Shown here piece by piece: positions 688 to 14,749 of a DNA stretch of 14,749 bases. Numbering within the stretch: position 1 is the first letter of the stretch; each line of letters begins with the position of its first letter. The position numbers and the translations under genes were made by a program. The notes below the pieces were generated by a model that saw only the letters and a list, made by a program, of their open reading frames with translations, had not been told where the DNA came from and made no database searches. Source of the stretch: a virus (taxonomy: Duplodnaviria > Heunggongvirae > Uroviricota > Caudoviricetes); the IMG/VR virus record IMGVR_UViG_3300042879_003909, positions 143,772 through 158,520 of that record; one strand, given 5' to 3'.

Positions 688-784
688 ATATTCTTCCGAC
701 TAAAACTATCGCTAGCATACCAATAAAGTATACAAATATCATTGATTCAATAATAAAACAAAATACTGATAAAAGTCTATTCAT
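680..784 (-). CDS. 34-aa putative single-pass membrane peptide
   Basis: Hand translation MNRLLSVFCFIIESMIFVYFIGMLAIVLVGRIWG*; ATGA overlap with the 781-1284 gene; stop overlaps the tmRNA 5' end. Confidence 0.55.
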   Translation of the reverse strand: MNRLLSVFCFIIESMIFVYFIGMLAIVLVGRIWG

Positions 785-1284
785 GTTATACACCAATTTG
801 GAGGATTTCTTTTTGTCCACTGAAACATGTTCTTGCCATTTTTATCGGTCTTCTTGTCTGATAAATAATAGGCCCGGTATGCTGCGACTGCATCTTTATG
901 CTTGTACTGTTCTGGCATAGCCTGAGCAAAAGGAGTTAGTTCATCACTAACCACTGGAGCATTATTAAAACACCAAACTAAAAAAGAATAACAAAAATGA
1001 TCTTTATCAAATCTAAACTTGCGTTCGTTGTATAAAGAAAAAGTATGAAGTAAAAGCCATTCGAAATTTTTGGCTGACTCTAAAACCCATTTAGAGCAAG
1101 GATGATGTAGATAAGAATGTTTGCGAGGGGTGCCATTTGCAGTTAAAGGCGCTTCTTTTAATTTATCTAGCGAGAAGCGATTAGCAAGCATTTGGCACCC
1201 TTCGACAACCATTTTGTTAACATGAATATCTATGAGAGACTGTGCCGCAACTTCTGGATCATAATCTACAACAAAGATGTTCAT
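781..1284 (-). CDS. pyrimidine dimer DNA glycosylase/endonuclease V-like protein
   Basis: MNIFVVD..P..AAQ...D.HV.KM..E..QML N-terminus, HHPC.KW and PFAQAMPEQYK...V.AYR.YY motifs typical of this phage family. Confidence 0.75.
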   Translation of the reverse strand: MNIFVVDYDPEVAAQSLIDIHVNKMVVEGCQMLANRFSLDKLKEAPLTANGTPRKHSYLHHPCSKWVLESAKNFEWLLLHTFSLYNERKFRFDKDHFCYSFLVWCFNNAPVVSDELTPFAQAMPEQYKHKDAVAAYRAYYLSDKKTDKNGKNMFQWTKRNPPNWCIT

Positions 1285-1322: not shown

Positions 1323-2204
<882 letters not shown>

Positions 2205-2232: not shown

Positions 2233-2260
2233 ATTATAACAATACTACTAGAGATATCAA
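2233..2260 (-). promoter_or_regulatory. sigma70-like promoter upstream of rIIB
   Basis: TTGATA-N16-TATAAT with TGn extension. Confidence 0.6.
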
Positions 2261-4173
2261 GATGCAAACTGAATATATTTTGCTAATTCTGAAATTATTT
2301 TATCAGAACAGCAACTACCATCATTAACAAATGTCAACAATGGATACTTTTCTAGAATTTTTTCTTCTAAAGTATCAATAGGATTTGTCGTAACAGTGAC
2401 ATTTGTATCATACAATTCAATAAACTTAATAGCATCTTTATTAACAGTTTTGCATAGCTCAACACTTTTAACAAAATCTTTAAACTCTGTAAAAGCATCA
2501 GGTAATACATTAGCAAGCCTACAGATTAGCCCGCTTCTTTCAGAAGAATTTTGGTCTCGTATAGGGTTTGCTTTCTTCAAATCTTCAATCATGCTTTTTA
2601 GATACTGATCAAGGCTAATCCAGCTTTTGTCGTTCAAGAATTCTTTTGAGTGTGCGAACTTAGATTTTATTCCAAATAGTTCAGTACCACTCATAAAGCT
2701 ACTTGTCATTAATTTTCTTAATCTATAAAAATTATTGTTAAATTGTCCACTGCTAACAATATCATTATTAAAAATTTCTACATAAATCTTTTGTTTAGCA
2801 GGAATACTTGTTGCACTGCATTCAATCCAAGCTGTTTTTTTGATTGAAGAGTTATTATATCTATAAACATATCCTTTCTTTACAGTCGCAGTAGTATTAC
2901 TGCGTTCTACTTTTGGTAAAGATGATGGATCACTAATAAACTGTGGCTCAATTCCTGCCTCCTTGATCTGATCTTCTGTAAAAACAGCAACTCTAGAATT
3001 AGTATCACGAACAAGATTTTTAATACGAGCAGAACAACCTTTAACATATTTAAATAGTTGCGAGTTTAAATTCAGGTGTGATGTATTAGTAGTCTGATAA
3101 CTAGATACACGACCTCTCGACGACTCATAAATTGTAAAAGAAGTCTTTGTATTCTTGAGAGAATATTTATCAGAAAGTTTGTCAATATAGGCATGACCAA
3201 ACATGTACCTAATACAATAGCCCTTTAGAATATTTTGTAATGCTAAAGCCTTCTCAAAATTTGTTGTTTTTGATTCAATGATATCTTCTACGTAAGATTT
3301 CATATTGTTTTTAATTAGTGCAATTTTTTCTTTAAGAGCGGCAATAGTCTTCTTGTCCATAGACAAATTTTCTCGCCCGGGATCAAAACTAAGCTCTCCA
3401 ATATTAAAGTAAAGATTAAAATCAATATCTAATCCTTCGCAATACTGGTGAGGAATAGTGTATGCAACATTTCCCATGACTGCATGCTGATAACCACTAA
3501 TGAAGTTTGCTTTAAACTCCGGCGTATCAATAGTATATTTCTTTTTATTATTTAATTTTTCTACTACGCTTGGAATATTGATATTAGGTAGTTTATTAAA
3601 AAAAGAATAAACATATTCCGCTTCTTCGCGGAAACTATCTATAGAGTTATTCTCAACATCTACGCTAATATTTAATCCGTTTGGTTCGTCCGTAGCTACT
3701 TCAGAAAGTAGGGCGATCTGAGGCTCACCATCTTCAGACTTATAGCAGCTATAGCTACGCTTAAAACCATTGTGATAGCTAACAACAGTAAAACTATCAA
3801 CTAAGCAAAAAGGAGATTTAGACCCAAGACCTAATGCTCCAATATAATCATTGGAATTAGTCTTTGTGCTATAGAAATATGTAGTAAATACTTCTCTGAT
3901 ATCTTGGTCAGACAGACCGATACCATAATCACGCACCGAGAACCAAGGTTCAATATGGGTAGGAAGATGAACATCGAATAGAGCATCATTGCCCGCTGCA
4001 ATATGTGCATCGTGTGCGTTGCAGCTAATCTCACGAATAACGGCCCGGATTTTATGGGTATAAATATTTGAACTAAGAATTTCGAAAGCCTTAGAGCTTG
4101 CCTGAATTTTAAAACCGCTGTTCTTGATAGAACCAGACACAATAACATCGCTCTTTGAATCGCCAATAATCAT
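2257..4173 (-). CDS. rIIA: rIIA-like protein with N-terminal GHKL/HATPase domain
   Basis: F.IQASSKAF.ILS..IY..KIRAV.RE.SCNA.DAH, VRDYGIG and IGALGLGSKSPF motifs; paired with rIIB; GAGG RBS. Confidence 0.85.
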   Translation of the reverse strand: MIIGDSKSDVIVSGSIKNSGFKIQASSKAFEILSSNIYTHKIRAVIREISCNAHDAHIAAGNDALFDVHLPTHIEPWFSVRDYGIGLSDQDIREVFTTYFYSTKTNSNDYIGALGLGSKSPFCLVDSFTVVSYHNGFKRSYSCYKSEDGEPQIALLSEVATDEPNGLNISVDVENNSIDSFREEAEYVYSFFNKLPNINIPSVVEKLNNKKKYTIDTPEFKANFISGYQHAVMGNVAYTIPHQYCEGLDIDFNLYFNIGELSFDPGRENLSMDKKTIAALKEKIALIKNNMKSYVEDIIESKTTNFEKALALQNILKGYCIRYMFGHAYIDKLSDKYSLKNTKTSFTIYESSRGRVSSYQTTNTSHLNLNSQLFKYVKGCSARIKNLVRDTNSRVAVFTEDQIKEAGIEPQFISDPSSLPKVERSNTTATVKKGYVYRYNNSSIKKTAWIECSATSIPAKQKIYVEIFNNDIVSSGQFNNNFYRLRKLMTSSFMSGTELFGIKSKFAHSKEFLNDKSWISLDQYLKSMIEDLKKANPIRDQNSSERSGLICRLANVLPDAFTEFKDFVKSVELCKTVNKDAIKFIELYDTNVTVTTNPIDTLEEKILEKYPLLTFVNDGSCCSDKIISELAKYIQFAS

Positions 4174-4242: not shown

Positions 4243-4734
4243 GATGTCAAAAGCTTGTAAAAATTCTTCTTTTGCGTTTTTTGAAAAAAATAACTTTTCA
4301 GAAGATTTTGTTCCCCACAAAACTTTTTTCTCAACTTTGAGAATCTTTCTGTCGTACTTCTTGATTATAGCATTATGTACTTGGAAGTCAAGGTTAAATT
4401 TTTTTTCTATTACAGAATTCATTCTAGATTCTATATCCAAGTATTCTTTCAGGTGTTTTTTTAGAGGAGATACAATATCACCTAAATAAGCCTCGCTAGC
4501 ATCATGCATTAACAGTGCAAACAATACATCCCTGCCCGATATTCCATCAAACATAGCCATTTGAACCATGCCCAAGCTATGCTCTGCCACGCTATAGTCT
4601 TGCGGTGACTGAGCCCCAAAACGAGAAACTCTACTTAATCCATGAGCAATAGTTTGAATAGAAATCATTTCTTCAACAGGATTAATCAAATCAATTTTAC
4701 TACCATCGCACAAAGTAATACAGCTTTCGTTCAT
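4222..4734 (-). CDS. HD-domain phosphohydrolase, YfbR/5'-deoxynucleotidase-like
   Basis: IAHGLS...RF, YSVAEHS, LMHDASEAYLGDI..PLK motifs. Confidence 0.85.
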   Translation of the reverse strand: MNESCITLCDGSKIDLINPVEEMISIQTIAHGLSRVSRFGAQSPQDYSVAEHSLGMVQMAMFDGISGRDVLFALLMHDASEAYLGDIVSPLKKHLKEYLDIESRMNSVIEKKFNLDFQVHNAIIKKYDRKILKVEKKVLWGTKSSEKLFFSKNAKEEFLQAFDILTSETF

Positions 4735-5792
4735 TTTGCACCTAAATATTCATGAGAGTAACAAGTTCTAACGGCATCTATTTCTTTTCTTTTATCTTCT
4801 TTTCTAATTTTATCACCTTTTGGAATATATAAATAATCCTTTCTGGCTCGGCCATTTTTGCTAGTAGCTTTCCATAGTGGCGATCTATTTCTATACTCGC
4901 CCATTCTGGGGTGCGCGGTTTTAGAAAAATATCTATGTCCGCTATCAGTAAAAAGCTTTGCTATAAAATCAGAAAATCTAACGCCTATACCAAGCCCCTG
5001 ATAATCTGGCAATACTACTGTTCTATGTTCTCTCCAAGCATTTTTAACCGTACCACTAGGATAAGCTAAAGCAGAACCAAAAGCAATAGGTTTAGTGTCA
5101 TATAATCCCAAAAAACACCGGGCAGATTTATTTATTTTATCGTCTAAATAATGATGGTGCCTAAAAACTTCCCACCACTCGGTTGTGCAAGAGTAGATTT
5201 CGAGTTGTATTTCTGGTCTACTCCGAAGAGACCTCCTTGAAGTCAAAACTCCTGTTTGTGTGTCAAAAATCCAGTCTGGTTGTAGCCATTCAATAATATC
5301 GTAATGACAGGTAGAAAAAACTACACCTGAAATATTATTTTGTCTAATATATCTTTGTGTGGCATGACAACTACTTTTGGCCACAGTACGATCAATAACA
5401 CTGGTAAATTCATCTATTGATACATTGCTATCTAAAATTCTAGCAAGTCTTGCCCGGAATTGTTCTCCATTACTTAATACGTGAAAGGGTCTGCACCATG
5501 AAGGAACACTATTTAAACCAACAGCAGACAGTTTTTGTTGCTCTACTTGGCTAACAATAGCAAGTTCCGGATTCCAATCGGGATCATTTGTGATGCCATA
5601 ATAATGTTTTAATAGAGAGGTTTTACCGCTTCCGCTTGACCCTACAATGAGACCTATTGCCCAAGAATTATCTCTTTTAGGAGCATTAAAATCTGGCAGT
5701 TCAAATACGCTATTGCCGTTAAAATTATAATCAAATGGTTGAATAGCATTTATTAAATTTTCGTCTAGTTTAACAGAGGTATATAGTTTCAT
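4731..5792 (-). CDS. ABC-type ATPase fused to a C-terminal GNAT acetyltransferase
   Basis: Walker A GSSGSGKT, signature LSNGEQFR, Walker B IDEFTS, H-loop TCHYD; C-terminal R.VVLPDYQGLGIG acetyl-CoA motif; 4-bp overlap with the HD gene. Confidence 0.8.
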   Translation of the reverse strand: MKLYTSVKLDENLINAIQPFDYNFNGNSVFELPDFNAPKRDNSWAIGLIVGSSGSGKTSLLKHYYGITNDPDWNPELAIVSQVEQQKLSAVGLNSVPSWCRPFHVLSNGEQFRARLARILDSNVSIDEFTSVIDRTVAKSSCHATQRYIRQNNISGVVFSTCHYDIIEWLQPDWIFDTQTGVLTSRRSLRSRPEIQLEIYSCTTEWWEVFRHHHYLDDKINKSARCFLGLYDTKPIAFGSALAYPSGTVKNAWREHRTVVLPDYQGLGIGVRFSDFIAKLFTDSGHRYFSKTAHPRMGEYRNRSPLWKATSKNGRARKDYLYIPKGDKIRKEDKRKEIDAVRTCYSHEYLGAK

Positions 5793-5928
5793 GATTATGT
5801 TTCGTCAAAAATTCCAACCAAAGATATTCCCAGATTTGATTTCTGGTTTCTGTTCTTATTTGCCCCATGATTTTTGTAGAGACCTGTTTTCTATTTTGAT
5901 AGCCTACTTGACTTCTAACTGTTTTCAT
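5770..5928 (-). CDS. 52-aa degenerate Q-tetrad micro-ORF
   Basis: Hand translation MKTVRSQVGYQNRKQVSTKIMGQIRTETRNQIWEYLWLEFLTKHNHETIYLC*; overlaps both neighbours; N-terminus matches the QVxx family. Confidence 0.55.
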   Translation of the reverse strand: MKTVRSQVGYQNRKQVSTKIMGQIRTETRNQIWEYLWLEFLTKHNHETIYLC

Positions 5929-6094
5929 TTTCGTCTTTAAACTGATCCCAGACTTGGTCCCCGACTTGGTCCCCGACTTGGCTCCAGACTTGGTTCCTGA
6001 CTTGGCTCTCGACTTGGTTACTGACTTGGTTCCAGACTTGTTTCGTGGTTTGGTTCCAGACTTGGCTCCTGACTTGGATCTTAACAGTTTTCAT
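5915..6094 (-). CDS. 59-aa QVxx tetrad-repeat protein
   Basis: MKTVKIQVRSQVWNQ...QVWDQFKDENENS; true start is most likely ATG 6094 (ATGA overlap), not the GTG at 6151 used by the ORF track. Confidence 0.75.
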   Translation of the reverse strand: MKTVKIQVRSQVWNQTTKQVWNQVSNQVESQVRNQVWSQVGDQVGDQVWDQFKDENENS

Positions 6095-6155
6095 TTCTTG
6101 CTCCTGACTTGGTTCCCGACTTGGTCCCAGACTTGGTCCCCGACTTGGCACCTGA
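5945..6155. repeat. 12-bp tandem repeat tract (GACTTG-N6 on + strand)
   Basis: Units such as GACTTGGTCCCC, GACTTGGCTCCA, GACTTGGTTCCT. Confidence 0.95.
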
Positions 6156-6177
6156 TTTCATATTGAATCGGCTTCAT
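6091..6177 (-). CDS. 28-aa QVxx tetrad-repeat peptide
   Basis: Hand translation [28 protein letters not shown]; same SKK-ATGA junction as in the right-hand array. Confidence 0.55.
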   Translation of the reverse strand: MKPIQYEIRCQVGDQVWDQVGNQVRSKK

Positions 6178-6250: not shown

Positions 6251-6715
6251 TTAGTCGCGGGCTCGGCGTTCTCGCTCTAGTTCCTTATCATACTCACGCT
6301 GATAGGTGCATTCGATGATAAACCCAGCAGGAACAGTAACGTCTCCATGAGTTGGGTGTAGTACCGTTGTTTCAGAATTACAAACCAGTACTGGACCCTT
6401 CAAGGACTCTTCATTCCAAACTGGTGGTAAATAAACATCTACACCATTTAAAGATTTAAGACAGTGCTTTGCTCCCTCGGTATTACCAACAACAAGCTGG
6501 CGATTAACCTCGGAAAGCTTTTCTACTTTCTTGTAATCCTTTGGAACAGATGCGACAACAGTTAGTGCCAAGTCGCCCTGCCAGATACGATCACGCACAG
6601 TTGATGCCTCAGTAAAACGCACTGGGGTACCGGGCTTAACTGCTTCTTCGTTGTTAAGAACACGCTTCACAAAACTCTGGATTTCTTCAATTGCATTAAT
6701 AATTGCATTAATCAT
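6251..6715 (-). CDS. conserved hypothetical protein (QGD...H...QREY motif), usual neighbour of DUF6745-like genes
   Basis: WQGDL, G.TEG.KH, L.HPTHG.V..P.G and QREY....R..RD motifs; AAGAGG RBS; pairing recalled from other genomes, not searched. Confidence 0.75.
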   Translation of the reverse strand: MINAIINAIEEIQSFVKRVLNNEEAVKPGTPVRFTEASTVRDRIWQGDLALTVVASVPKDYKKVEKLSEVNRQLVVGNTEGAKHCLKSLNGVDVYLPPVWNEESLKGPVLVCNSETTVLHPTHGDVTVPAGFIIECTYQREYDKELERERRARD

Positions 6716-6727
6716 AATAACCTCTTA

Positions 6728-7618
6728 CTAAGTACGAGCCAAAACATTAAACTTTTCACCACCACCTAGCCAAACTTGAGCGTCTTCACATGTTTCAATG
6801 CTATCAGGAACGCCCAGAACAAACATTCTACCCGTTGGACAAGTTACAACAAGCCGATTGCCATAGTTTTCAGTATTATACAGTGCCTCTTTAGTATTTT
6901 CAATATCGTTATGACGATAATCTAAACATTTTGCACCGGATTCCTGTAGATATCTCGCCCAACCAAAACGATTAATCATAATGGCCCGGGCTTCATTATT
7001 GTTGGTAGCATTAATTTCCTCTACCGTCAACGTCTCTGGAGCCATAACAGTCTTTTCATTTAGTCTTACACCATCAATAGCCCAAACCTTGTATCCATCA
7101 CGATATGCAACGGCTGGACCATTTTCATTATGTAAACGAAATTGATCGTCTAAGTGAATCTCTGAATGCTTGTGCTGAAAAATAACACAGGTATCATAAG
7201 GAGCCCACCAGCCAACATTCTTGGCAATACCAATTAGTCCTTCTAGCTTGCGGCATTCTTCAACACCTAGCTCATTAAGAACATAATCATAATATCCTAG
7301 CCAGCCAGCTTCATGACTACCAAAAGTTTGATTATTTAATTCATCATAAACAGCAGAGCGATATCTCTCAGTATCCGACTCATTGACTTCTCCCTTGAGT
7401 TTAACCGCTAGCTTTGCAGCAGCAATCGGACTATCGGCTAAATAAAAGTTTTCTGGACAAACTAAACCAGCAGCTTCGTATGCAAGCCGGGCATACTTCT
7501 TGGCTTCTTCTAGGTTACACTCTCCGCAGTCAAGGCCAATATCGATCCACTTCTGCCGATACTTTGGCAACAATGCTTCTTGTTCTGGCGTTAGCTTGTC
7601 GATAGTCTTCTTACTCAT
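6728..7618 (-). CDS. DUF6745-like protein without an internal tetrad repeat
   Basis: LTPEQEA.LP.YR.KW..IG, DSP, GSHEAGWL.YYD, GWW.PY and RLHNENGPAV.YRDG..VW..DGV motifs. Confidence 0.8.
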   Translation of the reverse strand: MSKKTIDKLTPEQEALLPKYRQKWIDIGLDCGECNLEEAKKYARLAYEAAGLVCPENFYLADSPIAAAKLAVKLKGEVNESDTERYRSAVYDELNNQTFGSHEAGWLGYYDYVLNELGVEECRKLEGLIGIAKNVGWWAPYDTCVIFQHKHSEIHLDDQFRLHNENGPAVAYRDGYKVWAIDGVRLNEKTVMAPETLTVEEINATNNNEARAIMINRFGWARYLQESGAKCLDYRHNDIENTKEALYNTENYGNRLVVTCPTGRMFVLGVPDSIETCEDAQVWLGGGEKFNVLART

Positions 7619-8160: not shown

Positions 8161-8199
8161 TTTAACATCGATGTAACTTTTGTCTACTCCACCAAAAAG

Positions 8200-8271
8200 A
8201 GGCCGATGGGGAACTCGAATCCCCTTAACTTATTTACGAAATAAGCGTTTTACCATATAAACTAAAAGGCC
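8200..8271 (-). tRNA. tRNA-Thr(CGT)
   Basis: Anticodon arm CTTAT-TTCGTAA-ATAAG; T-arm GGGGA-TTCGAGT-TCCCC; two acceptor mismatches. Confidence 0.85.
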
Positions 8272-8274
8272 AAG

Positions 8275-8303
8275 TTGGAGCGGGCGGAATCGAACCACCT
8301 ACC
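8275..8303 (-). pseudogene. tRNA 3' remnant (T-arm plus acceptor 3' strand)
   Basis: GGTA-GGTGG-TTCGATT-CCGCC-CGCTCCAA with no 5' half. Confidence 0.75.
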
Positions 8304-8306
8304 ACT

Positions 8307-8335
8307 ATTATAACAAGTATCTAGATAATTGTCAA
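8307..8335 (-). promoter_or_regulatory. consensus sigma70-like promoter
   Basis: TTGACA-N17-TATAAT with TGn extended -10. Confidence 0.8.
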
Positions 8336-8354
8336 GCTGATTATTTATTTTTAG

Positions 8355-8425
8355 TGCGAGTAGTCAGAATCGAACTGACGCATTTTCGTTGGCAACGAAA
8401 TATACTACCATTATATTATACCCGC
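8355..8425 (-). tRNA. tRNA-Gly(GCC)
   Basis: TTTCG-TTGCCAA-CGAAA; T-arm GTCAG-TTCGATT-CTGAC. Confidence 0.92.
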
Positions 8426-8438
8426 ATGTTTTGTTAAG

Positions 8439-8511
8439 TCCTCTCGTCCGGCACTGCCCCGGATTCCCCAATTTAAAAGATTGGTGATAATCTAGTTACA
8501 TCTCCGAGAGG
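8439..8511 (-). tRNA. tRNA-Lys(TTT), atypical D/T loops
   Basis: CCTCTCG/CGAGAGG; CCAAT-CTTTTAA-ATTGG; T-arm TCCGG-GGCAGTG-CCGGA. Confidence 0.8.
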
Positions 8512-8520
8512 TTATTTAAA

Positions 8521-8591
8521 TTATCCCGCCTAGATTCGAACTAGGGCCGTCATAGTCAAAGTATGAAGTGCTACCTTTACACTACGGGATA
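8521..8591 (-). tRNA. tRNA-Gln(TTG)
   Basis: TATCCCG/CGGGATA; TCATA-CTTTGAC-TATGA; TTCGAAT T-loop. Confidence 0.92.
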
Positions 8592-8592
8592 A

Positions 8593-8664
8593 TAGTCCCG
8601 CAGAGACTTCAACTCTGACAGGCATGGTAAGAGCATGCTATGCTAGCCGTTACATTACGGAACG
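8593..8664 (-). tRNA. tRNA-Lys(CTT)
   Basis: GCATG-CTCTTAC-CATGC; T-arm CAGAG-TTGAAGT-CTCTG; C1/U72 mismatch. Confidence 0.8.
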
Positions 8665-8666
8665 AA

Positions 8667-8873
8667 TTAATCACCATCATTAGTTGCCGGATAAAATACC
8701 ATATTTCTATTTTTACATACTGGGCATTTTTCTACAGATTTTTGTAAATATGGCGTAGAACCTTGAATATCGCTCATTTCATATTCTTCGGCCCTAGCTT
8801 CTGTTCCACAAATATGACATGTACCATACCATACTCTCTGGGGTAGTCTTTTACCCTTTTTGATGATTTCCAT
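8667..8873 (-). CDS. small zinc-ribbon protein
   Basis: CHIC...CPVC; ATG at 8873 (MEIIKKG) preferred over the TTG at 8888. Confidence 0.7.
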   Translation of the reverse strand: MEIIKKGKRLPQRVWYGTCHICGTEARAEEYEMSDIQGSTPYLQKSVEKCPVCKNRNMVFYPATNDGD

Positions 8874-8876
8874 CTC

Positions 8877-8904
8877 ATTATATCTCAATAAAAAAGAAAG
8901 TCAA
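8877..8904 (-). promoter_or_regulatory. sigma70-like promoter
   Basis: TTGACT-N16-TATAAT; the -10 is only 3 nt from the ATG at 8873, so its target is uncertain. Confidence 0.5.
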
Positions 8905-8907
8905 GCT

Positions 8908-9420
8908 CTATTTTATTTTTCTTCTTTTAATATTATGAGCTTTTTGAGCACATATTTTATTACAATATTTTTTATCTACCCTAACAGAGCACTCGAAATC
9001 GTTGTGACAAATTTCGCATTGTTTTAGATGTGTTTTAATTTCTACATTTTTAACATTAGAATCTTCTTCAAAATGAAGTTCTCTATGACAATTAGAACAT
9101 AATAAATCACATTTATCAAGTTCAATTTTTGTTTTTTCCCAAGACCTAGTTAGTCCTTTTTTACTTAATCCAAACTCTTTATCAGAAGACTCCCTATGAT
9201 GAAAATCTAATGCGGCAGAACATTTATCATAGCCACATTTTTGACACTTTCCGCCTTTATATTCTAAGGCTAATTGTTTTAATTTTAATCTTCTTCGATG
9301 AACAGCGTTGGTGCGACATTTTTTACATTTTCTTCTTTCTTTAGGAGTTCCAAAATTTTCTAAAGCAAATTCTGTTTCCCCATGTTGCTTACAAGTCCAT
9401 ATTATTGTTTTTTCTGGCAT
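8908..9420 (-). CDS. free-standing HNH endonuclease with Cys-rich modules
   Basis: GGKCQKCGY.KC..ALDFHH...KEF...ELDKC.LLCSNCHRELH; AGGAG RBS before ATG 9420. Confidence 0.9.
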   Translation of the reverse strand: MPEKTIIWTCKQHGETEFALENFGTPKERRKCKKCRTNAVHRRRLKLKQLALEYKGGKCQKCGYDKCSAALDFHHRESSDKEFGLSKKGLTRSWEKTKIELDKCDLLCSNCHRELHFEEDSNVKNVEIKTHLKQCEICHNDFECSVRVDKKYCNKICAQKAHNIKRRKIK

Positions 9421-9427
9421 ATATAAT

Positions 9428-9462
9428 CTCCTATACCTATATATACACAAAATGTATAGGTA
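9428..9462 (-). promoter_or_regulatory. RBS-sequestering hairpin with a candidate promoter motif in its loop
   Basis: CCTATAC (9454-9460) pairs with GTATAGG (9430-9436), which overlaps AGGAG; loop contains TTTTGTGTATAT. Confidence 0.5.
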
Positions 9463-9486
9463 GTAAGATTATTTTTATTTTACTAG

Positions 9487-9576
9487 CTCCGAAGTCAGGA
9501 TTCGAACCTGAATACCGTTCGAGACGGGTTACACAAAATTAACAGTTTTGCCGCTTTCCAATTAGCGTACCTCGGA
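9487..9576 (-). tRNA. tRNA-Asn(GTT) with long variable arm
   Basis: CAAAA-CTGTTAA-TTTTG; variable arm CCGT-CTCGA-ACGG; TCAGG-TTCGAAT-CCTGA; G73. Confidence 0.88.
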
Positions 9577-9607
9577 ATGTTTGGCTAACGTTGATCAGCC
9601 GATACAA

Positions 9608-9676
9608 TGCCTACAATTGGAATCGAACCAATCAATCCAGACTTATGAAATCTAGTTCTGCTCCAACAGCATAGGC
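9608..9676 (-). tRNA. tRNA(CAT) Met or Ile2, short and atypical
   Basis: TAGAT-TTCATAA-GTCTG; ATTGG-TTCGATT-CCAAT; reduced D-arm; 69 nt. Confidence 0.7.
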
Positions 9677-9681
9677 GTAAG

Positions 9682-9753
9682 TTGTGGATCATGGTATTGC
9701 ACCACACTCATTCGCGGCTTATGAGGCCGGAAGGATCACTTGATCTATCCACA
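9682..9753 (-). tRNA. tRNA(CAT) Met or Ile2, atypical
   Basis: TGTGGAT/ATCCACA; CGGC-CTCATAA-GCCG; T-loop TGCAATA. Confidence 0.65.
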
Positions 9754-9758
9754 ATAAA

Positions 9759-9829
9759 AGCCCCCAGCAAGAATCGGACTTGCTTTTCTAAATTACCAAT
9801 TTAGTGTTCTACCATTGAACTATAGGGGC
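9759..9829 (-). tRNA. tRNA-Thr(GGT)
   Basis: CTAAA-TTGGTAA-TTTAG; GCAAG-TCCGATT-CTTGC. Confidence 0.9.
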
Positions 9830-9832
9830 AAG

Positions 9833-9903
9833 CATGGGCGGACAGAGTCGAACTGTCGCTTACGATTTTGGAGATCGTTGTGCTACCGTAACACTTCGCC
9901 CAT
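9833..9903 (-). tRNA. tRNA-Trp(CCA)
   Basis: ACGAT-CTCCAAA-ATCGT; GACAG-TTCGACT-CTGTC. Confidence 0.93.
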
Positions 9904-9905
9904 GT

Positions 9906-9933
9906 ATTGTATCATTCTTTTACTCATTGTCAA
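9906..9933 (-). promoter_or_regulatory. sigma70-like promoter
   Basis: TTGACA-N16-TACAAT with TGn; the -10 is very close to the tRNA-Trp 5' end. Confidence 0.5.
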
Positions 9934-9934
9934 G

Positions 9935-10006
9935 TGCGTCTGCCCGGAATCGAACCGAGAACTTAAAGTTGGAAGCTTTTTATTTTACCGTTGAAACTAC
10001 AGACGC
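9935..10006 (-). tRNA. tRNA-Gly(TCC)
   Basis: GCGTCTG/CAGACGC; loop CTTCCAA; CTCGG-TTCGATT-CCGGG. Confidence 0.92.
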
Positions 10007-10010
10007 TTAG

Positions 10011-10162
10011 GTTTGTCTTTGTAACTTGCTCTAGCCAGCTTCGCTAGGCCGGATTGATGCCGTTTTCACTGTCGAATATTATATTCCATAGGGGCTCTCT
10101 TTTCACTGCCCGAAAGATATATTATTCATTTAAGTCACTTTTATTTATCCAGAAAGACAAAC
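10011..10162 (-). ncRNA. candidate structured ncRNA of unknown family
   Basis: 10-bp terminal stem GTTTGTCTTT/AAAGACAAAC plus GTGACTT/AAGTTAC, internal hairpins; fills the spacer between tRNA-Val and tRNA-Gly. Confidence 0.5.
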
Positions 10163-10165
10163 AAA

Positions 10166-10237
10166 TGGGCAATAATGGAATCGAACCATTTTCCTCTAAT
10201 TGTAAGTTAGAAATTTTAGCCATTAAACTAATCGCCC
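10166..10237 (-). tRNA. tRNA-Val(TAC)
   Basis: TCTAA-CTTACAA-TTAGA; AATGG-TTCGATT-CCATT. Confidence 0.92.
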
Positions 10238-10268
10238 TATATAAGTCGCCACTAGGAATGGACGACAA

Positions 10269-10340
10269 TGGATCGCTAGAGAATCGAACTCTACCAGATT
10301 GCTTGCAAAGCAGTCTCGCCCCCTTGGAACATGGCAACCC
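10269..10340 (-). tRNA. tRNA-Ala(TGC)
   Basis: GGGTTGC/GCGATCC with G3.U70; loop TTTGCAA; TAGAG-TTCGATT-CTCTA. Confidence 0.9.
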
Positions 10341-10509
10341 TTATTTTGCAGTCTCTCCCGCTGTGTTCCGTTCGGCATCACCCGTTGACCCTCTCTTACA
10401 ACCCCCATTCGGGAATAATAGTCCTTGAGGCACTTCATAACAACTTCACGGTCTTTTGCTTAAACTGAATATTTTCAGCATTTACCGATAGCATGTTTCG
10501 CATAAGCAG

Positions 10510-10582
10510 TGACGCGCACCGAAATCGAATCGGTGTAATATGGATTGAAAGTCCATACTGGGAAACCAACACCCTGCGCGCC
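10510..10582 (-). tRNA. tRNA-Glu(TTC)
   Basis: ATGGA-CTTTCAA-TCCAT; ACCGA-TTCGATT-TCGGT. Confidence 0.9.
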
Positions 10583-10590
10583 ATATTTTT

Positions 10591-10618
10591 ATTGTAACAG
10601 ATGATTTTAAGTTGTCAA
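10591..10618 (-). promoter_or_regulatory. sigma70-like promoter for the Glu-onward tRNA block
   Basis: TTGACA-N16-TACAAT with TGn; predicted start just upstream of tRNA-Glu. Confidence 0.75.
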
Positions 10619-10619
10619 G

Positions 10620-10639
10620 CGGAAGGTACACGATTCGAA
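10620..10639 (-). pseudogene. tRNA 3' remnant (Ser-like end)
   Basis: TTCGAAT-CGTGT-ACCTTCC-G, abutting the upstream region of the + strand endonuclease gene. Confidence 0.65.
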
Positions 10640-10685
10640 ATTAATATTTTTGTGTATATTATATTATACCAACAGGAGATATAAT

Positions 10686-11294
10686 ATGATATTTAAATGT
10701 ACTTTATGCAATAAAGATTTTGAAAGAAGCAAAAGAAATGCTTATATGAGCATTAAAAAAAATTGCAAGCCGTTTTGTTCAAAAACATGTTTTAACTCTT
10801 TTCAAACAACAAAACAACAAGTTTTGTGTAAAAATTGCAACAAAGCTTTTTATAAATTATTAAATCAAATCAAACAATCAAAAAATCATTTTTGTTCTAG
10901 GTCTTGTTCTGTTACTTATAATAATAAAAATAAGACAAAAGGAAACAGACGATCTAAACTAGAACAATATATTGAATTAAAACTTTCTGAAATATATCCA
11001 AATCTTCAAATATTATACAATAATAAAGAAGCTATAAAATCTGAATTAGATATCTATATACCATCTTTAAAATTAGCTTTTGAATTAAATGGAATTTTTC
11101 ATTATGAACCAATTTTTGGTGAAGATAAATTATCTAACATTCAAAATAACGATAATCGCAAATTTCAAGCTTGTTTAGAACAAAATATAGAACTTTGTAT
11201 TATCGACACTTCTTCACAAAAATATTTTAAAGAATCTTCTTCGGAAAAATTTTTAAAAATTATATGTGAAATTATCAACAAAAAAAATAATTAA
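10686..11294 (+). CDS. putative homing endonuclease: Cys-rich (CxxC/FCSxxC) modules plus a DUF559/Vsr-like PD-(D/E)xK domain
   Basis: ELDIYIPSLKLAFELNGIFHY motif; two CxxC...FCSxxC units; AGGAG RBS before ATG 10686; only convincing + strand gene in the window. Confidence 0.8.
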   Translation: MIFKCTLCNKDFERSKRNAYMSIKKNCKPFCSKTCFNSFQTTKQQVLCKNCNKAFYKLLNQIKQSKNHFCSRSCSVTYNNKNKTKGNRRSKLEQYIELKLSEIYPNLQILYNNKEAIKSELDIYIPSLKLAFELNGIFHYEPIFGEDKLSNIQNNDNRKFQACLEQNIELCIIDTSSQKYFKESSSEKFLKIICEIINKKNN

Positions 11295-11295
11295 G

Positions 11296-11377
11296 CGGAG
11301 AGTTGAGATACCGCCCCCCATGCTTTCGCACCAACAGTTTTCAAGACTGTGTCCACAACTTTGTGAATTAACTCTCC
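11296..11377 (-). tRNA. tRNA-Ser(TGA), probable 8/4 fold
   Basis: GGAGAGTT/AACTCTCC; 6-bp D-stem with 4-nt loop; ACAGT-CTTGAAA-ACTGT; variable arm TGC-GAAA-GCA; T-loop GGCGGTA; G73. Confidence 0.8.
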
Positions 11378-11438
11378 ATTTGCTACGGACGCCCGAAGAC
11401 GCCCGTGTTACTCACTGTACACTTGGTACATGAGCTAG

Positions 11439-11527
11439 CGGAGAATAATGGAATCAAACCATTACCGGGTTTTAAACCGGACGAATTTAGCAAATTCGCG
11501 TAGCAAATCAGTATCTACCTATTCTCC
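11439..11527 (-). tRNA. tRNA-Ser(GCT)
   Basis: CGAAT-TTGCTAA-ATTCG; long variable arm; G73; acceptor can extend to 8 bp (GGAGAATA/TATTCTCC). Confidence 0.88.
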
Positions 11528-11531
11528 AAAG

Positions 11532-11604
11532 CGACTCATAGGGTAATCGAAACCCTGCTTCAAGATCGACAATCTTGCGTCCTGCCCGTCTGGACCAATG
11601 AGCC
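11532..11604 (-). tRNA. tRNA-Asp(GTC)
   Basis: CAAGA-TTGTCGA-TCTTG; AGGGT-TTCGATT-ACCCT; G73. Confidence 0.92.
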
Positions 11605-11609
11605 AAATA

Positions 11610-11677
11610 AGAGGAAGAAGGGAGTCGAACCCTTTTAGCTTGTTTTGCAGACAAGCGCCCCACCTTGGGACAACCTC
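11610..11677 (-). tRNA. tRNA-Cys(GCA)
   Basis: CTTGT-CTGCAAA-ACAAG; AAGGG-TTCGACT-CCCTT; U73; short D-arm. Confidence 0.85.
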
Positions 11678-11680
11678 AAG

Positions 11681-11756
11681 CACCCCACACAGGAATCGAA
11701 CCCATTCTTACTAGTCCGTAGCTAGTCGTGCGAAAATTCCACTACACCAGTGAGGC
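11681..11756 (-). tRNA. tRNA-Arg(ACG)
   Basis: ACTAG-CTACGGA-CTAGT; TTCGATT T-loop. Confidence 0.9.
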
Positions 11757-11909
11757 ATATTCTTTTATTAACTCGGCCAATCTCTCGGCCTCTTCTTTTG
11801 TTAAAAGTATTCTAACCTGCTCTTCATTATTTGTCAACTGTAAAAGTATTCCATACGAATTTTTATTTACACCAACAAAATGACCAGATTCTAATTTTTT
11901 GCTAAACAT
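11742..11909 (-). CDS. 55-aa hypothetical protein
   Basis: Hand translation MFSKKLESGHFVGVNKNSYGILLQLTNNEEQVRILLTKEEAERLAELIKEYASLV*; AGGA RBS; 3' end overlaps tRNA-Arg(ACG). Confidence 0.65.
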   Translation of the reverse strand: MFSKKLESGHFVGVNKNSYGILLQLTNNEEQVRILLTKEEAERLAELIKEYASLV

Positions 11910-11930
11910 TTTATAATCCTATATAAACAG

Positions 11931-12004
11931 TAGTCCCAGTCGGAGTCGAACCGACAAACACTTCGTCCTAAGCGAAGCCGCTTTTCCAGTTTGCGTACAG
12001 GACT
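11931..12004 (-). tRNA. tRNA-Leu(TAG) with short variable loop
   Basis: CTTCG-CTTAGGA-CGAAG; 5-nt variable loop; GTCGG-TTCGACT-CCGAC; A73. Confidence 0.9.
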
Positions 12005-12111
12005 ATTTTTGGCCATGCTTAATGATTTTTGCTGATGGTCATTATACCTTGCTGACGCATTAATACAAGTCGAACAAAATATTTTTTCGCAGCTTTTTGT
12101 CCCAAGCCAAG

Positions 12112-12183
12112 CCGGTATTAATGGTATCGCACCACTCTCTTATGCTCTTCAGGCATACGCTAATCTATCTCAGCTAAATACCG
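12112..12183 (-). tRNA. tRNA-Phe(GAA)
   Basis: TATGC-CTGAAGA-GCATA; T-arm AGTGG-TGCGATA-CCATT. Confidence 0.82.
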
Positions 12184-12189
12184 ATAAAG

Positions 12190-12263
12190 GTGGAATGGAA
12201 AGAATTGAACTTTCGTAAGTTTTGTTCACAGCAAAACCCCCAAACCAACATGGGACAGTCCAC
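12190..12263 (-). tRNA. tRNA-His(GTG)
   Basis: G-1/C73 pair; TTTTG-CTGTGAA-CAAAA; GAAAG-TTCAATT-CTTTC. Confidence 0.88.
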
Positions 12264-12269
12264 ATAAAA

Positions 12270-12342
12270 TCTCACACGGCAGAATCGAACTGCATCCTCG
12301 ATACCCCAAATATCGCGTACAAACCATTATACGTCATGCGAG
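12270..12342 (-). tRNA. tRNA-Pro(TGG)
   Basis: CGATA-TTTGGGG-TATCG; GCAG-TTCGATT-CTGC. Confidence 0.9.
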
Positions 12343-12379
12343 TTAAAAAATACACAACCAAATTGTAAAAGATCGAAAG

Positions 12380-12452
12380 TAGTGCGTGACAGAGTTGAAC
12401 TGCCGTCTCTTGTGTATCAGACAAGGATACTAAACCGTTGTACTAACGCACT
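12380..12452 (-). tRNA. tRNA-Ile(GAT)
   Basis: CTTGT-CTGATAC-ACAAG; GGCAG-TTCAACT-CTGTC. Confidence 0.92.
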
Positions 12453-13293: not shown

Positions 13294-13438
13294 CTTTTAT
13301 GTAGTCTTTAAATCTATAAAATAGTAAAGATGGGAAACTTATTTTTTTTATAAAAAGGCTCCAGATAGGATATGATATGTGGCGATGAACGTCAATACCC
13401 TGTACGACCTCTCTTTGGAGCTTTTCTCTAAGTTTCAT
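13262..13438 (-). CDS. 58-aa micro-ORF
   Basis: Hand translation [32 protein letters not shown]...; overlaps both neighbours. Confidence 0.5.
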   Translation of the reverse strand: MKLREKLQREVVQGIDVHRHISYPIWSLFIKKISFPSLLFYRFKDYIKDDISNIRNQK

Positions 13439-13565
13439 TGTTCTTAGTCTTTAAAAAATCGTGAATAGCAATAAATGGCAATCTAAACATTATACGGCCA
13501 TCATAGTCGATAGTCATCCCAAATTCCCAAACAATTTTTTCTAATTTAAAATTAACAGTTTTCAT
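13428..13565 (-). CDS. 45-aa micro-ORF
   Basis: [45 protein letters not shown]; ATGA overlap with 13562-13744. Confidence 0.55.
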
Positions 13566-13744
13566 TTTTTGCTTACAACCTGACTCCTAATTCGATCTAT
13601 GGCTTGTATCCAGACTTGGCTCCAGACTTGGTCCCCGACTTGGCTCCAGATTTGGCTCCTGACTTGGATCAAGATTTGGTCCCCGACTTGGCTCCTGACT
13701 TGGTTCAAGATTTGGTTCCTGACTTGATTTTTGACAATTTTCAT
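13562..13744 (-). CDS. QVxx tetrad-repeat protein (60 aa)
   Basis: [16 protein letters not shown]...VVSKK; ATGA overlaps at both ends. Confidence 0.75.
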
Positions 13745-13947
13745 TTTTCGTCCCAGACTTGCTCGCAGATTTGGTTCCTGACTTGGTTCCAGACTTGGTT
13801 CACGACTTGGTATCCGACTTGGCTCCCGACTTGGTTCCCGACTTGGTCCCAGACTTGGCTCCAGACTTGGTCCCCGACTTGGCTCCAGATTTGGCTCCTG
13901 ACTTGGATCAAGACTTGGTCCATGATTTGATTCTTAGTTGTTTTCAT
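13741..13947 (-). CDS. QVxx tetrad-repeat protein (68 aa)
   Basis: [12 protein letters not shown]...QVWDEK; ATGA overlaps at both ends. Confidence 0.75.
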
Positions 13948-14102
13948 TTCTTGCTCACGATTTGGCTCCCGACTTGGCTCCAGACTTGGCTCCTGACTTG
14001 GTTCAAGATTTGGTCCCCGACTTGGCTCCAGACTTGGCTCCAGACTTGGTATCCGACTTGGCTCACGACTTGGGCCCTGACTTGATTTTTGACAATTTTC
14101 AT
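13944..14102 (-). CDS. QVxx tetrad-repeat protein (52 aa; absent from the ORF track)
   Basis: [52 protein letters not shown]; ATGA overlaps at both ends. Confidence 0.75.
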
Positions 14103-14329
14103 TTTTCGTCCCAGACTTGCTCCCAGATTTGGTTCCTGACTTGGTTCCAGACTTGGTTCACGACTTGGTATCCGACTTGGCTCACGACTTGGGCCCTGAT
14201 TTGATTCCAGACTTGGTTACTGATTTGGTTCCTGACTTGGCTCACGACTTGGCTCACGACTTGGTTACTGACTTGGTTCCAGACTTGATTCATAGCTCGA
14301 TGCCTGACTTGACTGCTGACAGCTTTCAT
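14099..14329 (-). CDS. QVxx tetrad-repeat protein (76 aa)
   Basis: [16 protein letters not shown]...QVWDEK; ATGA overlaps at both ends. Confidence 0.75.
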
Positions 14330-14508
14330 TTTTCGTCCCAGACTTGGCTCCTGACTTGGAACCTGACTTGGCTCCTGACTTGGTCCCAGACTTGGCTCCT
14401 GACTTGGTCCCAGACTTGGTTCCCGACTTGGTTCCAGACTTGGTTCCCGACTTGGTTCCTGACTTTGCTCAAGGCTTGGCTCCAGACTTGGTAAATAAGT
14501 GATTTCAT
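14326..14508 (-). CDS. QVxx tetrad-repeat protein (60 aa)
   Basis: [11 protein letters not shown]...QVWDEK; ATGA overlaps at both ends. Confidence 0.75.
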
Positions 14509-14675
14509 TTTTCGTGCCTGACTTGCTTCCAGACTTGGTTCCCGACTTGGTTACTGACTTGGTTCAAGAATTGGTTCCCGACTTGGATCATGACTTGGTA
14601 TCCGACTTGGCTCACGACTTGGGCCCTGACTTGATTCATAGCTCGATGCCTGACTTGACTGCTGACAGCTTTCAT
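14505..14675 (-). CDS. QVxx tetrad-repeat protein (56 aa; absent from the ORF track)
   Basis: [56 protein letters not shown]. Confidence 0.75.
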
Positions 14676-14749
14676 TTTTCGTCCCAGACTTGGCTCCTGA
14701 CTTGGAACCTGACTTGGCTCCTGACTTGGTCCCAGACTTGGCTCCTGAC
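14672..14749 (-). CDS. QVxx tetrad-repeat protein, 5' end beyond the window
   Basis: ...[25 protein letters not shown], identical to the end of 14326-14508. Confidence 0.7.
   Translation of the reverse strand, partial: VRSQVWDQVRSQVRFQVRSQVWDEK

Follow-up and report, generated by a model that had tools for sequence, protein, structure and literature searches.

The question raised by this locus is whether a run of 12-bp tandem repeats at the end of the record of a large, uncultured T4-like phage is a plain DNA repeat or a series of very small genes and, in the latter case, which protein family those genes belong to and what they might do. The window analyzed here is a stretch of 14,749 nucleotides that forms the end of a 158,520-bp IMG/VR virus record; coordinates refer to this window unless they are given as genome positions. 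The first and last 122 bp of the record are identical, which indicates that it is a circular assembly. An initial annotation, made from the letters of the window, had read the repeat as a set of translationally coupled micro-ORFs encoding variable peptides, and it is this reading that we examine and extend in the present work.

Organization of the micro-ORF array

The minus strand between 13562 and 14749 contains six complete ORFs and the 3' end of a seventh. Each of them consists of a head starting with MK, a run of Q-[VI]-x-x tetrads (QV tetrads) and a DEK, SKK or HEK tail, and all six complete ORFs appear in the mechanical ORF list of the window:

13562-13744, minus strand: QV-tetrad micro-ORF of 60 aa, the last of a 10-ORF array
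13741-13947, minus strand: QV-tetrad micro-ORF of 68 aa, used as query of the library search
13944-14102, minus strand: QV-tetrad micro-ORF of 52 aa
14099-14329, minus strand: QV-tetrad micro-ORF of 76 aa, used as search query and as partner in complex prediction
14326-14508, minus strand: QV-tetrad micro-ORF of 60 aa, with a close paralogue at genome 3632-3838
14505-14675, minus strand: QV-tetrad micro-ORF of 56 aa
14672-14749, minus strand: 3' end (last ~25 codons and stop) of a QV micro-ORF of 68 aa, the remainder of which lies across the record junction at genome 45-251

At the DNA level, Tandem Repeats Finder reports a single 12-bp array at 13609-14749, with 95.6 copies and a score (621) far beyond chance. 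The array runs on into genome 45-800, and it is hence composed of ten contiguous ORFs that extend from genome 800 down to window 13562. The count given in the initial annotation, at least seven consecutive minus-strand ORFs of which six complete ones span 52-76 aa and one is cut, was therefore right as far as the window reaches. The same holds for the uniformity of the junctions, since AAATGAAA, with its 4-nt ATGA stop-start overlap, is present at every junction of the window array. The stop of the last QV ORF overlaps in turn the start of a non-QV ORF of 45 aa (13428-13565), and AAATGAAA is also used by neighboring non-QV small ORFs, so that the junction should be seen as a style of this early region and not as a mark of the family. 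Identical blocks, each comprising a junction and the ensuing head, recur both inside the array and from one cluster to another (window 14329 and 14675; genome 3632-3838), with one 16-residue head occurring twice and one 20-residue head found in two clusters, which indicates that entire junction blocks have recently been duplicated or recombined.

Beyond the array, the genome contains three smaller groups of QV ORFs:

genome 3477-4025: cluster of four QV ORFs
genome 4474-4796: cluster of two QV ORFs
window 5770-6177, minus strand: cluster of three QV ORFs, just downstream of the DUF6745 gene described below
6091-6177, minus strand: QV micro-ORF of 28 aa, the first of the three-ORF cluster
5915-6094, minus strand: QV micro-ORF of 59 aa, counted from the ATG at 6094; one A has been lost at its next junction, where the stop falls 10 nt past the next ATG, with no overlap
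5770-5928, minus strand: degenerate QV-like ORF of 52 aa, overlapping the start of an ATPase-GNAT gene

The genome total is thus 19 QV micro-ORFs in four clusters, in which ~190 copies of one hexamer are found. These ORFs encode 24-76 aa with 5-16 tetrads, and some of them are degenerate or very short (24, 28 and 52 aa). An ATG and a stop are kept in all 19, and the coupled ATGA overlap is preserved at all internal junctions but one.

Conservation of the repeat at the protein level

The tetrads of this genome are almost uniformly encoded as CAA GTC NNG NNC. Across 171 tetrads, glutamine is always CAA, and the second position is taken up by 158 GTC and 13 ATC codons. All of the characteristic codons are rare within their codon sets in the rest of the genome (GTC 9%, AAC 23%, AGG 13%, GGG 13%), and GTC, which represents 9% of Val codons genome-wide, makes up nearly all Val codons in the array. 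Such an atypical codon usage fits a recent amplification from one founder unit. The initial claim that the ORFs stay in frame holds over the complete array, with no internal stop in the 624 codons of the QV phase, as opposed to the 34 and 9 of the remaining same-strand phases and the 2, 18 and 63 of those on the opposite strand, one antisense frame being almost open. Nonetheless, if the array arose by amplification of a founder unit, a stop-free QV phase is by itself weak evidence within this genome.

Decisive here is what other lineages show. Two scans of viral contigs yielded ~60 loci with the same amino-acid repeat, among which all eight synonymous Gln-Val hexamers are found, each of them uniform within its locus (the unit types across loci are CAAGTC, CAAGTT, CAAGTA, CAAGTG, CAGGTC, CAGGTT, CAGGTG and CAGATT-type). 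The peptide is therefore conserved between lineages and the DNA motif is not, which argues for a coding function and upholds the initial view that this is no plain DNA repeat. Under the hexamer changes of other lineages, the antisense frame would switch between D, N, Y and H at one position. Within loci, and in every lineage, whether the tract is free-standing or fused to a larger protein, nucleotide entropy peaks at unit positions 7, 8, 10 and 11 and falls to low values at positions 3, 6 and 12, which are synonymous, a pattern which indicates that slippage or recombination homogenizes the units, whereas residues 3 and 4 stay diverse. Together with the shared ATGA overlaps, the variable tetrad positions are in keeping with the polycistronic family of variable peptides that had been put forward for this locus. 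Mutagenesis of the DGR type, a candidate raised by the NNC codons of the fourth position, was rejected, as no RVT_1 match was found in the 158.5-kb genome; it is also disfavored by the fact that other lineages use mostly AAT or GAT.

Many of the ~60 viral loci are themselves arrays of free-standing micro-ORFs with lineage-specific heads (MNQV, MTLSEEQIQPV, MTSQNKV, MKSLRDQV or MKSV[IK]DQV) and tails, and at their junctions the ORFs either overlap (by ATGA or by 17 nt) or are set apart by a 4-nt gap. Across viral contigs the family ranges from 20 to 220 aa, and tetrad-only free-standing proteins attain 138-220 aa (L027 4725-5384; L008 3-443 and 791-1207). The initial annotation had expected frames and junctions to persist in related arrays, and the arrays of other phages do keep their frames and coupled junctions, apart from a few frameshifted units in locus L040. 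There, two micro-ORFs (3820-4044 and 4775-5023) contain frameshifted tetrad stretches and one of them reads into the next unit, an instance of decay or chimera formation within such an array; the constraint on frame is accordingly not absolute. With regard to close relatives, megablast returned no phage record matching the window, an exact 34-mer from the array flank had no match in viral contigs, and the one locus found via a neighboring 72-aa protein was not syntenic and lacked the array.

The tetrads as a module of DUF6745 proteins

Scans of the peptides against Pfam, PHROGs and NCBIfam gave only sub-threshold matches to unrelated helical families. A phmmer search over 1.84 billion representatives, on the other hand, produced 663 clusters (50% identity) at E ≤ 0.001 and 150 at E ≤ 1e-10, and a search limited to longer proteins returned 98 homologues, with E-values down to 2.5e-53, most of which carry PF20530 (DUF6745). 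The usual layout of these proteins comprises an N-terminal region of ~75-85 aa ending near a DSP motif, a tetrad tract of 40-260 aa, and a C-terminal domain of ~200-245 aa. Two homologues from NCBI assemblies are located in phage-like replication modules, and gene 38 of the mycobacterial prophage prophiGD102-1 displays the same N-domain/tetrads/C-domain architecture with Q-L-x-x tetrads. As a lead only, the ESM Atlas contains clusters of viral proteins, 57-68 aa in length, at 0.91-0.92.

The likeness between the DUF6745 tract and the window peptides extends to several features. Both are made of Q-[V/I/L]-x-x tetrads arising from in-frame 12-bp units, both favor W/R/G at position 3 and N/D/S at position 4, they share 50-65% identity, and their within-locus variation patterns are alike. 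They differ in that the tract of DUF6745 proteins is one in-frame segment of 40-330 aa between domains, whereas here it is distributed over 19 genes, each with a start and a stop of its own. The genome does contain a DUF6745 gene, and the tetrad tract is absent from it:

6728-7618, minus strand: the one gene in the genome for a DUF6745 (PF20530) protein; 296 aa, no tetrad tract, 101 bits against a cut-off of 27
6251-6715, minus strand: ORF of 154 aa that separates the DUF6745 gene from the three-ORF QV cluster, with no family match and no homologue in other split loci

Most of the QV ORFs (16 of 19) lie more than 5.9 kb away from the DUF6745 gene. What the initial annotation had missed, then, is that the tetrads are the detached middle module of DUF6745 proteins, a repeat-less representative of which is encoded at 6728-7618. 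A second tetrad architecture, without DUF6745, was also observed, in which an N-terminal region of 150-300 aa is followed by tetrads and a conserved ~56-aa tail (P0055, P0070, P0048, P0049, P0057 and P0069); the N-terminal region of P0055 has Macro and DUF7666 matches that are weak and sub-threshold. Profiles of PADLOC-DB, which cover described systems only, matched neither the peptide nor DUF6745. In the papers searched, neither DUF6745 nor the tetrad strings are mentioned and no description of the family was found, in agreement with the suggestion that it had gone undescribed.

Viral loci were classified with an HMM of the DUF6745 C-domain. The fused layout corresponds to proteins of 384-652 aa, and the split layout to a repeat-less DUF6745 gene followed by one to seven QV micro-ORFs on the same strand (L012/L013, L017, L040, L049, L055, L056 and L057). 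On an unrooted maximum-likelihood tree of 59 DUF6745 cores from which the tract had been removed, the split state requires six changes, at least four of which are forced by well-supported branches, and the AU test rejected a tree in which the six split proteins examined form one clade (lnL difference 254.9, p-AU 8e-59). Transitions between the fused and split forms have hence taken place repeatedly, in a direction that an unrooted tree does not give. In the manner of a Rosetta-stone argument, these repeated switches provide strong genomic evidence that tract and DUF6745 act together, and we consider it very probable that the QV ORFs are real genes linked to DUF6745.

Predicted structure and docking of the peptides

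The AlphaFold2 model of the DUF6745 C-domain has a pLDDT of 89. A Foldseek search of this model against the PDB returned nothing at E ≤ 0.001, and the best Z in a VIA-align comparison with 48,161 chains was 4.9, with no solved fold alike; the AlphaFold DB clusters matched were mainly those of other DUF6745 entries and unnamed proteins, along with some entries annotated as LRR or as '17 kDa surface antigen'. In the model of a fused homologue (P0059), the tract forms two long helices (75-107 and 115-150) between packed N- and C-domains, although confidence over the tract is low (pLDDT 45-78). The initial annotation had proposed either helices with a four-residue period or amyloid-like strands: both predictions made here favor helices, and nothing points to amyloid-like strands.

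The complex of the repeat-less DUF6745 protein with the 76-aa peptide was predicted from alignments built in this analysis. It obtained a score of 0.62, as compared with 0.00 for the best control; the mark adopted for this score is attained in 58 of 80 solved complexes and in 2 of 110 mismatched pairs. At least 85% of contacts are shared between prediction runs, and the partner has a pLDDT of 73 or more. Given that no similar complex has been solved, the outcome is unlikely to stem from the memory of the model. Confident contacts include all tetrad positions of the peptide that are occupied by Q or V/I and exclude 13 of 15 fourth positions. The best-defined contacts of the peptide are V16, V20, V24, V28, I44, V48, V52, V56 and V64, and the DUF6745 residues in the best-defined pairs are 17-28, 46-50, 108-113, 122-128 and 140-142. 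The docking score is the model's own confidence, a prediction rather than a measurement, and on this basis we see belief and doubt as evenly balanced on whether QV peptides dock in trans on the repeat-less DUF6745 protein.

Location in a putative early region

The array is part of a same-strand block that includes 20 tRNA genes, rIIA, rIIB, a denV-like gene and nucleotide-metabolism genes, a combination characteristic of early regions in large T4-like phages. The following features were identified in its surroundings:

281-352 and 8199-12452, minus strand: 20 tRNA genes, of which a single cluster immediately downstream of the array comprises 19
781-1284, minus strand: denV-like gene (Pyr_excise)
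1323-2204, minus strand: rIIB-like gene
2257-4173, minus strand: rIIA-like gene
4731-5792, minus strand: gene for a protein of 353 aa in which an ABC-type P-loop ATPase is fused to a GNAT acetyltransferase (phrog_11143, E 1e-106)
8908-9450, minus strand: HNH/homing-endonuclease-like gene within the tRNA cluster
10650-11294, plus strand: HNH/homing-endonuclease-like gene within the tRNA cluster, with a zf-FCS motif
12847-12820, 12492-12465 and 11837-11809, minus strand: three near-consensus sigma-70-like promoters downstream of the array (TTGACA, 16-17 nt, TATAxT; 11/12 matches), preceding small ORFs and tRNA genes

Neither sigma-70-like promoter nor intrinsic terminator patterns were found on the coding strand inside the array, an absence that fits, if weakly, a polycistronic unit. 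The tRNAs for Gln-UUG, Trp-CCA, Asn-GUU, Asp-GUC, Gly-UCC and Arg-UCU match the dominant codons of the array; the cluster is a general one and the link is unproven. No tRNA-Ser is present among the 20 tRNA genes of the window.

Proposed mechanism and alternative explanations

The explanation that we favor, and that we hold to be rather probable, is that the QV ORFs give rise through coupled translation to separate helical peptides that dock on the repeat-less DUF6745 protein, providing dose and variants of its middle module in an accessory early role. Each micro-gene would yield a protein of 24-76 aa with an MK head, tetrads in predicted long helices and a short charged tail. Lying upstream of rIIA/rIIB in the early region, the array is probably transcribed as one unit, and its ORFs would be translated successively by termination-reinitiation at the ATGA overlaps. 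The QV ORFs would thereby represent the free-standing and multiplied form of a tract that most phages keep inside DUF6745 proteins, the single DUF6745 protein of this genome having presumably lost its tract and being predicted to receive the peptides in trans. In the docked peptide, the invariant Gln and the Val/Ile would face DUF6745, leaving the fourth position exposed. Slippage and unequal recombination would homogenize synonymous sites, with variation kept at positions 3 and 4, and the 19 genes would supply both the dose and the set of variants. Reasoning by analogy with gp54 of mycobacteriophage Tweety, a tetrapeptide-repeat protein that is not a homologue (see below), the most likely role would be a tunable accessory function in early infection, such as counter-defence or host takeover; a counter-defence role in particular must be viewed as doubtful.

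Several other explanations deserve consideration. A tract operating at the DNA level, as iterons, as an origin or packaging site or as a recombination hot spot, with incidental ORFs, could account for the packing of the hexamer copies into four clusters, for nearly invariant synonymous sites in a background of atypical GC content and codon usage, and for the almost open antisense frame. It leaves unexplained, however, the conservation between lineages of the amino-acid tetrad and not of the DNA motif, the presence of a start codon, head, tail and coupled stop on each unit in many lineages, and the occurrence of the tract in frame inside hundreds of DUF6745 proteins, and we deem it extremely improbable. 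If the ORFs were instead debris that is not expressed, having arisen by slippage from a former DUF6745 tract and now being lost, one would anticipate degenerate and very short copies, frameshifted units like those of L040 and a founder-like codon usage, all of which are seen; but debris would hardly retain an ATG and a stop in every one of the 19 ORFs and the ATGA overlap at all internal junctions save one, nor would the same layout be maintained across several independent lineages, which makes this a very unlikely account. The composition of the junction also invites a reading of the array as one tetrad polyprotein, produced by -1 slippage of tRNA-Lys at the shifty stop GAA AAA TGA, since a -1 slip on AAA before TGA re-pairs perfectly and continues as ATG AAA in the next frame. 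This shifty stop with its A-run is, however, specific to the lineage of this phage; the junctions of other lineages cannot slip (CAC CAA TGA, the 17-nt overlap and the 4-nt gap) and keep their own ATGs, implying that separate peptides are the common product, and a polyprotein is accordingly hardly credible.

The remaining alternatives accept separate peptides and concern their mode of action. The peptides could act alone, without DUF6745, as self-associating helical bundles, as a scaffold or as decoys of host factors. The distance of 16 of the 19 ORFs from the DUF6745 gene speaks for this possibility, as do QV-only proteins of up to 220 aa with no DUF6745 gene seen nearby (L027 and L008) and the existence of the tract in other architectures, such as that of P0055 with its weak, sub-threshold Macro match. 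Repeated independent transitions between fused and split forms nevertheless tie the tract to DUF6745, and the docking prediction passed its controls, so that we regard independent action as unlikely. Bolder, and decidedly unlikely as a whole, is the notion of a two-part combinatorial system in which a constant DUF6745 base would be loaded in trans with ~19 interchangeable helical tetrad peptides, the array being a fast-evolving, recombination-driven library of specificity subunits directed against changing host factors, e.g. defence proteins. Under such a combinatorial arrangement, the Gln/Val face would dock and each peptide would show a different W/R/G and N/S/D surface.

Comparison with other phage systems and implications

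By analogy, the QV family resembles in kind the hypervariable tetrapeptide-repeat accessory proteins of phages. Among these, gp54 of mycobacteriophage Tweety is a tetrapeptide-repeat counter-defence protein whose activity has been tested, and its repeat varies at positions 7, 8, 10 and 11 with invariant third codon positions (PMC2884959). Just as in the QV tetrads, its 12-bp unit specifies two invariant residues followed by two variable ones, with Gly and Trp at position 3; the number of repeats varies between relatives and the gene is non-essential and accessory. The repeat of gp54, on the other hand, is Ala-Ala-x-x and not Gln-Val-x-x, and it forms a single fused protein, as opposed to the array of free-standing genes found here. 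Homology between the two was examined and rejected (no Pfam family at E ≤ 0.1; hhalign probability 0.2%), and gp54 is the closest studied analogue rather than a relative. Were the combinatorial arrangement correct, it would correspond to the tunable repeat of gp54 in a split and multiplexed form.

T4-like phages are also known to carry, upstream of rIIA/rIIB, small early genes arranged in tandem families. The present locus shares with them the many small, packed or overlapping ORFs on the same strand, and here too rIIA and rIIB lie downstream. Unlike the QV ORFs, those early genes are not known to be built from an internal short repeat or to be paralogues that reproduce a module from another protein.

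More generally, the locus offers an example of a protein repeat that has been released as an array of micro-genes, and it carries a warning for annotation, in that 12-bp 'tandem repeats' of this type are genes that gene callers often miss. The split form makes the tract experimentally separable, with small peptides on one side and a repeat-less partner on the other. Its reach is broad, for the 663 clusters at 50% identity indicate that hundreds of phage lineages carry the tract, and, if the analogy with Tweety gp54 holds, the QV tetrads would constitute a widespread, fast-tuning counter-defence module.
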